From a virus (Duplodnaviria > Heunggongvirae > Uroviricota > Caudoviricetes), in the IMG/VR virus record IMGVR_UViG_2534682157_000018: DNA of 42,422 nucleotides; one strand, written 5' to 3'. Positions 23,662 through 40,870 of this stretch are shown piece by piece. Both the position numbers and the translations under genes were made by a program. Within the stretch, counting starts at the first letter, position 1. Each line of letters starts with the position of its first letter. The notes under the pieces are model-generated. The model saw only the letters and a list, made by a program, of their open reading frames with translations. It searched no databases and was not told where the DNA came from.

Positions 23662-24057
23662 CTAACCTCGCATGTCAAAGCCAGATTTCTGAAAATCTCT
23701 GTAGACTTCCGGATTGTTAAAGGCCGGAAATTTGGCTTTATGAGCTGCGGACTTTATCGCTTCGCAATAGGCTTTATCACCGTTACTGGTAGATATTTTT
23801 AACGCCGTGCCATCCTGAGAGAATTCCATATGCAACCTGCATTTTTTCCCTTTCCAGTTATGCGGCTCATCAAGTTTGGCATTAATTGCAGCTCTGATTC
23901 CCCGCGCTTGCGCCCCCCATTCATCCTGATCATCCCAGCGTCCTGAACTGCAACTACCTGTAGCAGTAGTTTTGTGGCAATCTGAAGGGTGTAAAGGTGT
24001 GCATCCCGCAACAAAACCGACCCAAAAAGTCAACATAACGATTTTCTTTAATCCCAC
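23662..24057 (-). CDS. putative lipoprotein (moron, paralog A)
   Basis: 131-aa ORF with signal peptide and lipobox FVAGC; C-terminal half homologous to the neighbouring lipoprotein. Confidence 0.6.
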   Translation of the reverse strand: MGLKKIVMLTFWVGFVAGCTPLHPSDCHKTTATGSCSSGRWDDQDEWGAQARGIRAAINAKLDEPHNWKGKKCRLHMEFSQDGTALKISTSNGDKAYCEAIKSAAHKAKFPAFNNPEVYRDFQKSGFDMRG

Positions 24058-24207: not shown

Positions 24208-24636
24208 TCAGGGTTTAAAATCCAGCACCCCATTTTGAAATACTTTATATACTTCCGGCGAAGGGGGGGCAGGTATATCAGCATTCTTTATCGCATTCAT
24301 CGCTTCACGACATAAATCGAGGTCTCCACTTTCTCTTTTAACCTCCAGTAGAAGGCCATTCGGGGCCATATGCATTCTCAGTGTACACTCTTTTCCTGAA
24401 TACTTACTCGCATCCCCGAACTGTTTTTCGATGGCGCTCTTGATTTGATGGGCATACAGACGGATATCCTCACTAACATCAGAAGTACGTTCAGATGAAC
24501 TCACATACTGTGTCTCTATTGCTTTATCGGAGTAATATGATGTACGGTCATGATAATTTGTCGATACAGCATCAGTGCACCCGATAATAATCCCACTAAT
24601 AATCAACGTAAGAATTGATGCGCTACGAAAACCCAT
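24208..24636 (-). CDS. putative lipoprotein (moron, paralog B)
   Basis: 142-aa ORF with lipobox IIGC; shares the C-terminal motif set with paralog A. Confidence 0.6.
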   Translation of the reverse strand: MGFRSASILTLIISGIIIGCTDAVSTNYHDRTSYYSDKAIETQYVSSSERTSDVSEDIRLYAHQIKSAIEKQFGDASKYSGKECTLRMHMAPNGLLLEVKRESGDLDLCREAMNAIKNADIPAPPSPEVYKVFQNGVLDFKP

Positions 24637-25224
24637 TTTTCCTCACATATGTCATATAGTAAAGGATTATATATACCGTTGTTTTGGACGCTCAAACAGC
24701 GAATCAGATCAAATAAAACGCACATTTGTTAACATTTACACAAAGTCTGCGTGGGATATTCTGAAAGAATATCCATAATGTGGAGAGAATCTATTGAAGT
24801 GCATGGTGCCGGGTGCCTCCCGGTGAACAAAATGTTCGTGATACCTGTCGGCGACAGAAAAGGTTAATGGTATCACCCCACCGCACAGGGGGATTCACCA
24901 TGCAGGAGTTTTCTTAGCAAACTCACTGCGCGCCCGGCAACTCCCAACCACATAAAATGCGGAGTTTGTGGTATTTATGCATATAACTCGCAGGAATTAT
25001 CTTAAAAAACTGATGTCGATCCGGATTAAAAAGAAGCAGGTCATCATCAGATGACTGGAAAAAAGGAAACAAAAAATACTCATCATACAGTTTTGATTGC
25101 AGGGATGAGCCTGCTATGCACAATATGCAGAATATAAGCAAGATAAAAATATGCAGGCATATTATTTCGGATTTTGTTATTAACACAACCTTTTTAATAA
25201 TCATTTGGCATACAATAAACCAGC

Positions 25225-25252
25225 CCAAAAAGAACCGCCTAAACAGGCGGTT
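25225..25252 (-). terminator. intrinsic terminator (candidate tR'-like) downstream of Q
   Basis: On minus strand: AACCGCC-loop-GGCGGTT stem followed by CTTTTTGGG. Confidence 0.5.
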
Positions 25253-25572
25253 GGTCAATACAAAGGATGCTTCGTCTTTATTATAGTAATCTGAGGCGTC
25301 GGGTGTCTTGTATCAGACAACATATTGTCCCGCTAAACAGCGAATTACAAACCACCCTGCAATGATCTCTCATCTCATTTTATATGAGTTGACGACATCA
25401 GGATAACGCATCATCAGCCCCTGCCAAGAAATATCAAAACTCCCGCCAGCAATGTGTTATCACAATATTGTAAAAAAAACACAGCACCGAAACTATAACT
25501 GGTCTCTGTTATAATTTGGAGCAGAAAGACCAGTTGCCCAACTAGCAGCATTCTCCCCTGCTTTCCTGACGT

Positions 25573-25599
25573 AAAAAAACCGCATTAAGCGGTTTTTTT
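25573..25599. terminator. bidirectional intrinsic terminator about 80 nt downstream of Q stop
   Basis: A7-CCGC-ATTAA-GCGG-T7: symmetric stem-loop with A-run on one side and T-run on the other. Confidence 0.6.
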
Positions 25600-25679
25600 A
25601 CGATGTCCATGTCTGCAATCCGCCTCGCGATACAGCTTTGCGAAGCATAGCAAAATTGAAGCAGTTTATACGTAAGAAA

Positions 25680-26222
25680 TCAAGCCATTTTCTCAGCAAA
25701 TGATTCACGCATGGGAATATATAGGGCATACTCAGCAACAGCTAACCAATTAGCAATCCGTTTTTCGCATGTGCTAAAACACCACTCTGGGTGTGCATCA
25801 TTTAGCAATTCAGCCATTTTGCGCTTAGTCATCCCCCGCCCTTCATAGCGTTGCCGGAGAATGCAAATCAATCCTGGATGCTCTGCCAGCACCTCACTTA
25901 TGACTCGATCAATACATAACGCCTCTGCATCAGTACAATGCGCCAGCCAGCTCTTTTGCTTGCCGTTGATCATCTCTCGCAAAAACGCTTCCAGCTCAGC
26001 TTTCTCTATTCCCGCTTTTTTCATTCTGCGCAGGGCTTCATTAATGGCTGTTTTCGTCAGTTTTTTGGATGCCAACAACTGATTGAACATATTCCCTGAC
26101 CTGCCACCGCCAATATACGACCAGCGCCCCCACATACGTAGTTTTCCCTGAATCCAGACACTTTCCAGCGTGGTGAGGCGAAGGTGTTCTCCGCTTTTTC
26201 CTGTATTCGTTGGATAAATCAT
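25680..26222 (-). CDS. Q: late-gene antiterminator Q-like protein
   Basis: 180-aa ORF directly upstream of terminators and lysis cassette, downstream of nin-type genes; assignment mainly by synteny, family not verified. Confidence 0.55.
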   Translation of the reverse strand: MIYPTNTGKSGEHLRLTTLESVWIQGKLRMWGRWSYIGGGRSGNMFNQLLASKKLTKTAINEALRRMKKAGIEKAELEAFLREMINGKQKSWLAHCTDAEALCIDRVISEVLAEHPGLICILRQRYEGRGMTKRKMAELLNDAHPEWCFSTCEKRIANWLAVAEYALYIPMRESFAEKMA

Positions 26223-27574: not shown

Positions 27575-27787
27575 TTACTCCTCAGGTTCGTAAGCTGTGA
27601 AGACAGCGGCCTCCGTCTGCCCGGTTCGGATTCGTACCTCGCAGAGGTCTTTCCTCGTTACCAGTGCCGTCACAATGACGGTTAAACAGATGACGATCAG
27701 GGCGATTAACATCGCCTTTTGCTGCTTTATAGCCTGCTTCTCCTTGCCTTTCGGCACGTAAGAGGCTAACCTACATGTGCAAAGCAT
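27575..27787 (-). CDS. hokD: Hok-family type I toxin (HokD/RelF-like core), maximal ORF with N-terminal extension
   Basis: C-terminal 45 aa MLIALIVICLTVIVTALVTRKDLCEVRIRTGQTEAAVFTAYEPEE is near-identical to E. coli HokD/RelF from memory; the codon where I recall the HokD start Met is ATA here; an in-frame ATG at 27787 has a GAGG 8 nt upstream. Confidence 0.8.
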   Translation of the reverse strand: MLCTCRLASYVPKGKEKQAIKQQKAMLIALIVICLTVIVTALVTRKDLCEVRIRTGQTEAAVFTAYEPEE

Positions 27788-27941
27788 GAAATTGGCCTCA
27801 GATTAATGTTAAGCGTCTTGCCGGACGCGTAATGTTAACTGGGGCTTTTCTCTATCTGCCTTTGGTGTTCATGCCCGAGGCAGATAGCCTCAAGCACCCG
27901 CAGCAATTCTACTTAACTCCCGTCACCTCGCCAATATAAAA

Positions 27942-40494: not shown

Positions 40495-40689
40495 ATGAGA
40501 TATGACAATGTTAAACCATGTCCATTTTGTGGTTGTCCATCAGTAACGGTGAAAGCCATTTCAGGATATTACCGAGCGAAGTGTAACGGATGCGAATCCC
40601 GAACCGGTTATGGTGGAAGTGAAAAAGAAGCACTCGAAAGATGGAATAAACGAACCACTGGAAATAATAATGGAGGTGTTCATGTATAA
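40495..40689 (+). CDS. lar: restriction alleviation protein Lar (RalR)
   Basis: MRYDNVKPCPFCGCPSVTVKAISGYYRAKCNGCESRTGYGGSEKEALERWNKR..., 64 aa, Cys4 zinc-ribbon. Confidence 0.8.
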   Translation: MRYDNVKPCPFCGCPSVTVKAISGYYRAKCNGCESRTGYGGSEKEALERWNKRTTGNNNGGVHV

Positions 40690-40870
40690 AATTACCGCCA
40701 CTATTGAAAAGGAAGGTGGCACTCCTACTAACTGGACAAGATATTCAAAATCTAAACTAACGAAATCAGAATGCGAAAAAATGCTCTCAGGTAAAAAAGA
40801 AGCAGCCGTTTCCAGAGAGCAGAAAGTAAAACTGATAAATTTTAATTGCGAGAGACTTCAGTCCTCGTGA
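40682..40870 (+). CDS. ydaC: small protein YdaC-like
   Basis: From internal Met MYKITATIEKEGGTPTNWTRYSKSKLTKSECEKML...; overlaps lar stop. Confidence 0.5.
   Translation: MYKITATIEKEGGTPTNWTRYSKSKLTKSECEKMLSGKKEAAVSREQKVKLINFNCERLQSS

Follow-up and report, generated by a model that had tools for sequence, protein, structure and literature searches.

A probable late-gene control region downstream of a DUF1133-family Q gene in a Rac-type prophage of Escherichia coli

In phage 21, for which the mechanism of the Q protein has been described (bioRxiv 10.1101/651190), the annotated late promoter pR' is ordered as a -35 (TTGACA), two Q-binding elements, QBEu (ATTGAGCA) and QBEd (AATGAGCA), a -10, the start, a pause element (TAAGCT) and a terminator. 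In the Salmonella prophage Gifsy-1, the AntQ protein has experimentally shown antitermination-type activity and interferes with termination, while the small RNA IsrK is the terminated product of a promoter directly 3' of antQ; orf45, anrP and isrJ lie downstream of isrK, and IsrK activates translation of its own read-through isoform (Hershko-Shalev et al. 2016, PMC4825925). Short RNAs running from pR' to the terminator tR' are made constitutively in lysogens, as illustrated by StxS, which is cut by RNase E from a precursor of 258 nucleotides (nt), binds Hfq and activates RpoS (PMC7547250). A survey of Stx phages classed DUF1133 proteins as Q antiterminators by HHpred (PMC8136144). Here we compare with these systems a 42,422-nt stretch of viral DNA, IMG/VR record IMGVR_UViG_2534682157_000018 (the window), which is a Rac-type lambdoid prophage of Escherichia coli. 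Our analysis centers on the gap of about 1 kb between its Q gene and two lipoprotein genes with a TolA C-terminal domain, where the minus strand is the direction of all relevant transcription. The part of this gap from 25225 to 25680 is probably the late-gene control region of the prophage, and as such an ordinary phage late switch. From sequence features, homology, conservation and covariation we predict its promoter activity, pausing, the binding and loading of Q, and the transcript ends. The features are collected in Table 1.

Table 1. Features of the late-gene control region and its surroundings, in window coordinates.
Feature	Position	Strand	Remarks
Q-like late antiterminator gene	25680-26222	-	180 amino acids, DUF1133 family, relative of phage 21 Q (Q21), AntQ-like
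Predicted -35, TTGATT	25678-25683	-	overlaps the Q stop codon TGA (25682-25680); TTG invariant in 29 unique variants
Q-binding-element-like segment, TTACGTAT + AAACTGC	25661-25675	-	at the position of the annotated QBEu/QBEd of phage 21
Predicted extended -10, TG (25663-25662), c, TTCAAT (25660-25655)	25655-25663	-	17-nt spacer from the -35
-10-like candidate sigma-dependent pause element, TATGCT	25644-25649	-	TGc before it; five bases after the extended -10
5'-proximal hairpin of the predicted short RNA, GCUUCGC...GCGAGGC	25622-25646	-	from folding
Predicted terminated RNA of ~75 nt	25573-25648	-	-30.1 kcal/mol, z -4.3; 5' hairpin + terminator hairpin
tR', intrinsic terminator of the late promoter	25573-25599	both	A7 (25573-25579)-CCGC-ATTAA-GCGG-T7 (25593-25599), read on the plus strand
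Post-terminator segment	25520-25572	-	74-77% identity with other DUF1133-Q prophages (L107, L011, L075), then diverges
9-base-pair inverted repeat, AACTGGTCT / AGACCAGTT	25497-25505 / 25527-25535	both	21-nt loop holds TGTTATAAT
TGTTATAAT, perfect extended -10 consensus	25507-25515	+	probably incidental
Decayed copy of a structured RNA element of ~290 nt	25227-25509	-	nhmmer matches; homology ends at the second terminator
Long hairpin (~35 base pairs) of the element	25389-25474	-	helices 2-3; 4 compensatory pair differences between window and L100
Promoter-like site AAGACA-18-TATAAT	25280-25309	-	10/12 matches, weak -35; inside the element
Second intrinsic terminator	25227-25252	-	stem AACCGCCTGTTTAGGCGGTT (25252-25233), then CTTTTT; 3' end of the structured element
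Third terminator-like hairpin	25040-25055	-	GTCATCTGATGATGAC, then CTGCTTCTTT; between the structured RNA element and STnc100
STnc100 match (Rfam RF02076)	24747-24933	-	86.6 bits versus gathering score 47; between the second terminator and the TolA-like gene
Promoter-like site TTGAGC-18-TATAAT	24666-24695	-	10/12 matches in the promoter scan
Lipoprotein genes with TolA C-terminal domain (two)	24208-24636, 23662-24057	-	first has a promoter-like site directly 5'

As judged from profile and sequence comparison, the Q of the window is a homologue of phage 21 Q and stands near the Salmonella AntQ-type proteins. It belongs to the DUF1133 family with a Pfam E value of 2.5e-107, and its match to Phage_antitermQ is borderline, at 26.1 bits against a cutoff of 26. 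When a profile of 15 DUF1133 sequences was aligned with phage 21 Q by hhalign, residues 16-178 matched residues 8-151 with a probability of 94.5% and an E value of 7.9e-8. Over residues 1-176 the protein is 84% identical to a homologue in Salmonella (L008) and 89% identical to one in E. coli/Shigella (L004). In both of these loci Rfam isrK lies directly 3' of the Q-type gene (67-76 bits), which is the order of antQ and isrK in Gifsy-1.

The evidence for a late promoter comes from aligning the DNA 3' of the stop codon across 107 loci that encode relatives of this Q. The pattern TTG-N20-TGnTTnAAT-N5-TAnGCT is kept across the 29 unique promoter variants, with a distance to the stop codon that is constant inside each group, and its central part, TGnTTnAAT, shows at least 90% conservation among them. 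The sequence TAnGCT recurs near the Q stop codon in 43 of the 49 unique Q-downstream sequences, two of these being spurious upstream matches, and its offset is likewise fixed within each group. All variants of this hexamer retain A at position 2 and T at position 6, the behaviour expected of a sigma-dependent pause element. Read onto the window, the pattern yields a predicted -35, extended -10 and pause element, from which transcription is predicted to start at about 25649-25646 on the minus strand; since the -10 is non-canonical, this start can be predicted only to within a few nucleotides. An earlier reading of the letters alone (the sequence-only reading) had placed the late promoter and its terminator in this interval, and our analysis agrees, the -35 alone running 3 nt past its edge, to 25683. 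The same reading had found no convincing -35/-10 pair on the minus strand by eye. A consensus scan also rejects TTCAAT, and both overlooked this hexamer because it has T rather than A at -11 (the scan demands A at position 2); the pair predicted here was identified through its conservation and its match to the annotated pR' of phage 21.

The whole block behaves as a unit. A BLAST match to diverged E. coli DUF1133 prophages extends from exactly 25683 (query position 484) to 25573, and the promoter, pause element and terminator travel together with DUF1133 Q genes while everything further 3' varies. The stretch from the end of Q to the terminator has matches in 1,848 of 5,426 complete E. coli genomes. 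Within the block, the 8-mer that begins 2 nt after the -35 falls into discrete types that co-vary across loci with the C-terminal, predicted recognition, helix of Q. The helix STCEKRIANWL is paired with TTACG(T/C)AT (25675-25668 in the window), whereas two DUF1133 subgroups combine TCRRRID(T/M)W with TGAGC(C/A) and RTCE(T/S/N)RID with TTGCGCGG; the helix TCRREVD of phage 21 Q goes with TGAGCA subsites, and the AntQ-type helix RTCCSRVDV goes with the unrelated IsrK promoter, TTGACT-18-TATATT. It is this co-variation that argues most strongly for the block as the cognate site of Q loading. Little variation is seen in the downstream half of the putative binding segment, AAACTGC, which shares bases with the TG of the extended -10. 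At the loci of a more distant DUF1133 Q (group B: L009, L013 and L016-L026), the 3'-terminal part of the Q reading frame contains the -35, the binding site and the -10, and the Q stop codon ends 7 nt 5' of the pause element, so that the same bases encode the C-terminal tail of Q and its promoter.

These observations also bear on the proposal that the late promoter lies elsewhere, for example at the TTGAGC-18-TATAAT site (24695-24666), and that the two hairpins of the interval merely end unrelated small transcription units (morons). The promoter scan indeed gave that site 10/12 and left the proposed pR' unreported, and a mosaic region separates Q from the lysis genes. We consider this proposal very unlikely, given that the block stays with DUF1133 Q while the downstream DNA changes, co-varies with the Q recognition helix and fits the layout of phage 21; a promoter positioned just 5' of a cargo gene would rather fit a promoter for lysogenic conversion.

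The first terminator of the interval, described in the sequence-only reading as a symmetric A7-stem-T7 structure about 80 nt after the Q stop, is present as described, with folds of about -19.6 kcal/mol on either strand. It begins 80 nt after the stop codon (25682-25680), lies within a perfect 14-nt inverted repeat (25570-25583 and 25589-25602) and reaches -19.7 kcal/mol on the minus strand (z about -6.8) and -19.5 kcal/mol on the plus strand (z about -6.3), with 0 of 200 shuffles folding as well. Having a hairpin, an A-run and a T-run on both strands, it has the form of a bidirectional terminator and may act in either direction. A consensus terminator scan did not report it, probably because the A and T runs lengthen the stem and leave no T tail. 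Downstream of DUF1133 Q genes, all 28 of the 28 distinct hairpin variants consist of a GC hairpin with a T-run, 45-93 nt after the stop codon, and their stems vary (CCGC, CCCGC(C), CCACC, GACGC, GGCCGC and GCCCGAGG). The persistence of hairpin and T-run in every variant despite differing stems identifies the first terminator as tR'. The symmetric A-tract that makes the terminator bidirectional in form was seen in only 2 of the hairpin types. In L107, one of the prophages that share the segment 3' of tR', this segment precedes what appears by eye to be a regulator open reading frame (ORF).

Transcription from the predicted start to tR' would produce an RNA of about 75 nt. Most variants likewise have a 5' hairpin that begins at +2/+3, its sequence differing among them. 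The Rfam isrK model (RF01394) aligns to 25646-25573 over its full length (1-77), but at only 21.6 bits and an E value of 0.038, and an end-to-end alignment with so low a score points to a positional analogue of IsrK and not to a member of its family. The predicted RNA would equally be a positional analogue of StxS and of the lambda 6S RNA, which is a short pR'-tR' transcript. As a compatible extension of the late-switch reading, the short minus-strand RNA (~25648-25573) might act in trans as a regulator, like IsrK or StxS. Its position and size equal those of IsrK, StxS provides a precedent, the 5' hairpin and the 30-nt initial transcribed sequence are conserved within the close group, and the A-rich stretch and U7 tail would suit Hfq binding. 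The conservation of the initial sequence may, however, serve pausing or Q loading instead, no target was identified, and beyond the terminator the sequence is unrelated to IsrK. We therefore put this role forward only tentatively.

Several points weigh against reading the interval as a late switch. The -10 TTCAAT was not picked up by the consensus scan and has T at -11, where an A is normally essential. In the putative binding segment, the halves TTACGTAT and AAACTGC(T) do not form a clear direct repeat of the kind seen in phage 21, which makes the downstream subsite uncertain. At the level of the protein, a single-sequence phmmer search of Q against the solved Q21 chains in PDB gave an E value of 0.27, and a single-sequence structure model of Q was unusable (predicted local distance difference test 39.6). 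The core stem of tR' has only 4 G-C pairs, and the isrK match is far under the Rfam gathering score (21.6 versus 50 bits). Finally, Rac is frequently defective, and whether its Q is expressed in practice may be doubted.

The working of the switch can be sketched by analogy with its better-known relatives. In a lysogen lacking Q, RNA polymerase with sigma-70 would initiate at about 25648 from the promoter overlapping the end of the Q gene, re-bind the -10-like TATGCT (25649-25644) and pause. The paused polymerase would then go on to terminate at 25599-25573, releasing the RNA of about 75 nt with its 5' hairpin and terminator hairpin. Upon induction, by homology, Q would bind at 25675-25661, between the -35 and the -10, and load onto the paused polymerase. 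Modified in this way, the polymerase would pass the first terminator, the second (25252-25227) and further hairpins, and read-through would reach the TolA-like lipoprotein genes, the holin, the lysozyme and genes beyond. In this scheme the second terminator would be an additional obstacle, left by a relic tRNA-trailer RNA that is discussed below, and would be ignored by the Q-modified polymerase.

The interval also carries, on the plus strand, the motif TGTTATAAT. The sequence-only reading had located it correctly, and its arithmetic is right: a start about 7 nt downstream gives a 78-nt RNA ending at 25599. The short plus-strand RNA that it considered possible is nevertheless unsupported. The pattern TGNTATAAT has 1 match in the window against 1.46 expected, at least one match arises in 74 of 100 shuffles, and no -35 is seen upstream in the sequence. 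In the closest relative of this sub-region (L119) the motif reads CGTTATAAT, so that the TG is lost while TATAAT is kept on the plus strand; relatives of the L100 type have no plus-strand -10 there, and carry TATGAT or TATAAT on the late-gene strand. That both strands resemble a -10 follows from the palindromic core, TTATAA. Relatives have a hairpin at the same place as the inverted repeat 25497-25535 that encloses the motif, formed by other sequences. Copies of the window version are nearly identical (38 complete among the fetched loci, about 444 genomes), and for this reason conservation cannot decide on the plus-strand RNA. In DNA this rich in A and T, the motif most likely arose by chance.

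Were TGTTATAAT active, a plus-strand RNA of about 78 nt (~25522-25599) would end at the bidirectional terminator and be antisense to the read-through leader. Its 3' 27 nt would be complementary to the short late-promoter RNA, and in this way it could reduce any leak of late expression. In its favor, a TGnTATAAT that fits perfectly can be active even where a -35 is missing, the A7 and T7 runs make the terminator fully symmetric, the predicted RNA folds at -29.7 kcal/mol (z -6.9, mostly owing to the terminator), and TATAAT is retained on the plus strand in the closest relative. Set against this are the chance frequency of the motif and its missing -35, the absence of the TG in L119 and of any plus-strand -10 in L100-type relatives, the fact that most tR' variants lack a good T-tract in the plus direction, and the weakness of the plus-strand Rfam matches (E values of 0.09 for isrK, 0.63 for AgrB and 1.8 for OrzO-P). 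On balance we find such an antisense RNA improbable. The Thr_leader, AgrB, OrzO-P and plus-strand isrK matches all fall far below threshold and were judged to be driven by the terminator hairpin. The same plus-strand RNA would be needed for a type I toxin-antitoxin system, in which a hydrophobic ORF of 45 amino acids (25551-25414, minus strand) would encode the toxin and the RNA, lying over its start codon, would be the antitoxin. The ORF is present and hydrophobic, the antisense RNA would overlap its ribosome-binding region, and AgrB and OrzO-P are antitoxin RNAs. The E values of these two matches are, however, not significant; the ORF has no tblastn match in 50,697 phage records, relatives do not keep its frame (the L107 type has a 2-nt indel, and the T-run varies from 6 to 8 T), its Shine-Dalgarno core ends 1 nt before the ATG, and the covariation in the region is of RNA type. 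The lack of a conserved frame removes the toxin-antitoxin idea; with no phage homologue either, we rejected it and assign it next to no likelihood.

A second minus-strand terminator, which the sequence-only reading had placed at 25225-25252, is likewise present, its stem at 25252-25233 being followed by CTTTTT. Its folding energy is -12.4 kcal/mol (z -2.8), a value reached by 5 of 200 shuffles. Terminator-like sites in 3 kb are not above chance (3 observed versus 2.6 expected), and with simple counts at chance the verdict rests on comparison with relatives, in which both terminators are conserved and are therefore not accidents. The stem ACCGCC/GGCGG and a T-run are kept in all aligned relatives, as T8 in the relatives and TTCTTTTT in the window.

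This terminator closes a decayed copy of a structured RNA element whose distribution is wide. An nhmmer search with the window segment found copies in many other loci at roughly 65-70% identity (an estimate from the alignments), and by BLAST the canonical element was detected in 417 of the 5,426 E. coli genomes and also in some plasmids and 2 phage records; EAEC 042 has a canonical copy at NC_017626.1:1549927-1550217. It is also present in 96 stretches of IMG/VR viral contigs and is unannotated in the records inspected. RNAalifold folds the element into a hairpin of about 35 base pairs, a long-range helix and several small helices. Among 18 distinct element sequences, 95.3% of cells are paired, compared with 41-54% in slid controls; compensatory change affects 13 pairs, a number that none of 500 shuffles attained (7.6 +/- 1.7), and 43 cells (14.1 +/- 4.0 in shuffles). 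A scan of viral contigs by motif yielded 64 unique sequences, in which 285 cells are compensatory (96 +/- 11 in shuffles); the 36 compensatory pairs (29.2 +/- 2.8 in shuffles) stay within the shuffled range, whose maximum is 38. The long-range helix alone occurs in four states (GAGGCG/CGCCTC, GAGGTG/CACCTC, GAGACG/CGTCTC and GAGATG/CATCTC). We are highly confident that the conserved structure is real. The element folds better in the sense than in the antisense direction (-124.5 versus -87.1 kcal/mol) and has many G-U pairs, both of which indicate an RNA made from the late-gene strand. In the window, the long hairpin and the terminator are preserved, as are 5 of 6 pairs in the long-range helix, and 17 nt that form the 5' arm of helix 10 are missing. 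With no match to an Rfam family, in the annotation of the records inspected or to literature strings, the element is apparently an undescribed RNA family; full-text literature searches by sequence string found nothing relevant for it or for the short RNA. Identity with the small RNA (sRNA) PasA was tried and rejected: the PasA fragment in the supplement of PMC8550237 did not match, and the PasA locus of E2348/69 gave no hit to a hidden Markov model of the element. PasA and PasC are encoded on the strand opposite to the late genes.

The origin of the element is suggested by its neighbors. A tRNA gene lies just upstream in 76 of the 89 viral-contig copies, 75 of them with tRNA-Gly, and in relatives the element starts about 100 nt 3' of the tRNA gene, within tRNA operons that have a promoter-like site upstream. 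The association holds independently of whether the upstream gene is a DUF1133 Q, a Q of another family or a methylase. In the window we found no tRNA gene, so the copy there does not sit about 100 nt after a phage tRNA, and a promoter scan of 25572-25509 revealed no promoter of its own for the element; the minus-strand hexamer in this stretch is TATAAC, where relatives have TATGAT or TATAAT. Inside the element, the hexamer that aligns in relatives with the TATAAT of the AAGACA-18-TATAAT site (25285-25280) retains A2 and T6 (AACAAT, TACAAT, TATAAT and TAAAAT), and this site could, speculatively, give an RNA of about 48 nt ending at the second terminator. The tRNA link in relatives, the lack of a tRNA in the window and the loss of 17 nt lead us to conclude that the most suitable reading of the second terminator is that it ended a tRNA operon which has since been lost; it is not a barrier designed for the late promoter. 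It is conceivable, though we would not press the point, that the element is a tRNA-operon trailer made in lysogens with a distinct regulatory function, affecting lysis-gene expression or host targets; possible forms include a stable RNA processed by RNase III, or the precursor of an Hfq-type sRNA with the conserved single-stranded AUUGACCA before the terminator. Copies on the plasmids L118 (pBCE049-1) and L120 (p-1122), which have a 'tRNA-OTHER' just upstream and lie beside a DMT transporter gene and transposases, show that the element has travelled outside prophages, onto large E. coli plasmids.

The wider window fits a Rac-type prophage: RalA antitoxin RNA is found at 40688-40866 (minus strand, 220 bits) and a sok/hok locus at 27725-27899 (minus strand, 116 bits), and in matching genomes the prophage lies at ttcA with intR, recET, kilR, sieB and trkG. 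A P21-type holin gene and then a lysozyme gene follow 3' of the TolA-like genes. The block 24940-25572 had no match in a search of the phage database. A 2026 preprint by Zhu, Shabalina and Storz connects STnc100, which is present as three tandem copies at locus L111, with PasD sRNAs found in pathogenic E. coli. The first of the TolA-domain lipoprotein genes looks like a cargo gene, or moron, with its own promoter, and as a TolA-domain decoy its product could affect the entry of colicins or phages. Phage mEp460 is identical in DNA over 24600-24827, a segment that includes the 5' end of this gene and 190 nt upstream, and its gene is annotated 'TolA protein'. Non-phage cargo lies between the replication and Q regions, with genes for an MFS transporter, a LysR regulator, a BCCT transporter and a DUF2254 protein, as seen in the matching genome CP53. 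Strains CP53 and HS30-1 both harbor this exact Rac variant.

For Q proteins of the DUF1133 class, which is annotated only as a 'domain of unknown function' and includes the toxic Salmonella AntQ, our findings assign positions to a predicted late promoter and pause site, to a probable site of Q binding and to a terminator. The match between helix type and 8-mer type amounts to a candidate recognition code, which would predict protein-DNA pairings and can be compared with the solved Q21-QBE complex. An RNA of about 75 nt is predicted, and is likely abundant, in lysogens of a very common E. coli prophage. The structured tRNA-trailer RNA, a candidate new family, is more novel than the cassette itself; the window holds a relic copy of it, partly inside the interval examined.

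Comparison with phage 21, which the sequence-only reading had proposed, reveals the same order of elements. Both regions have a -35, a gap of 2 nt, a 16-base-pair Q-binding region (putative in the window) abutting the -10, TAnGCT at the start, a terminator, and genes for holin and lysozyme further on. The Q proteins are homologous (hhalign 94.5%), and the pairing of a TCRR-type helix with TGAGCA-type sites in phage 21 is also found in one DUF1133 subgroup. The differences are that the Q proteins share only about 23% identity, the window Q being some 18 residues longer (180 versus 162); that the distance from the -35 to the pause element is 2 base pairs shorter in the window; that the window has no obvious direct repeat of two 8-base-pair subsites; that its terminator is separate from the pause element, allowing for an RNA of about 75 nt, whereas that of phage 21 is annotated 2 nt after the start; and that in the window no tRNA genes follow.

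The antQ-isrK region of Gifsy-1 resembles the window in its Q protein, which at Rfam-isrK loci is 84-89% identical over residues 1-176, in a -35 that overlaps the stop codon, in a 74-77-nt RNA ending at an intrinsic terminator, and in read-through into the downstream operon (PMC4825925), the RNA and the read-through being predicted in the window. It differs in the last 30 or so residues of Q and in the whole sequence of promoter and RNA, the promoter being TTGACT-18-TATATT with no TAnGCT. The isrK loci (L004 and L008) carry matches to c4-type antisense RNA downstream, where the window has instead the relic tRNA-trailer RNA, the STnc100-like RNA and the TolA-like genes. These Rfam C4 antisense RNA matches lie just 3' of isrK, at 3075-3276 in L004 and 3187-3268 in L008, and in L004 the a1/b1 target elements of C4 overlap the start of isrK, which suggests that the IsrK-orf45-anrP region is related to the c4-icd-ant immunity module of P1/P7.

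StxS shares with the predicted RNA of the window a constitutive late promoter whose transcript is terminated just downstream in lysogens, giving a short RNA. It differs in being processed from a 258-nt precursor, whereas the predicted primary product of the window would already be about 75 nt. The phages that encode StxS, as well as lambda, presumably use Q families other than that of the window.

Among RNAs that end tRNA operons, 3'ETS-leuZ of E. coli is a tRNA-operon trailer RNA. The structured element is similar in that, in relatives, it comes directly after the final tRNA of an operon that has a promoter of its own, and supplies the terminator of that operon. It differs in being much longer (~290 nt), highly structured, with a hairpin of about 35 base pairs, and phage-borne, and the window copy is detached from any tRNA. 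Like STnc100 and PasD, which are prophage sRNAs between Q and the lysis genes, the element occupies this part of the prophage, but it matches neither STnc100 nor the PasA locus of E2348/69. In summary, the sequence comparisons assembled here indicate that the late-control cassette of this Rac-type prophage is homologous to the Q cassette of phage 21, is closest to antQ-isrK of Gifsy-1, and falls in a different specificity group.

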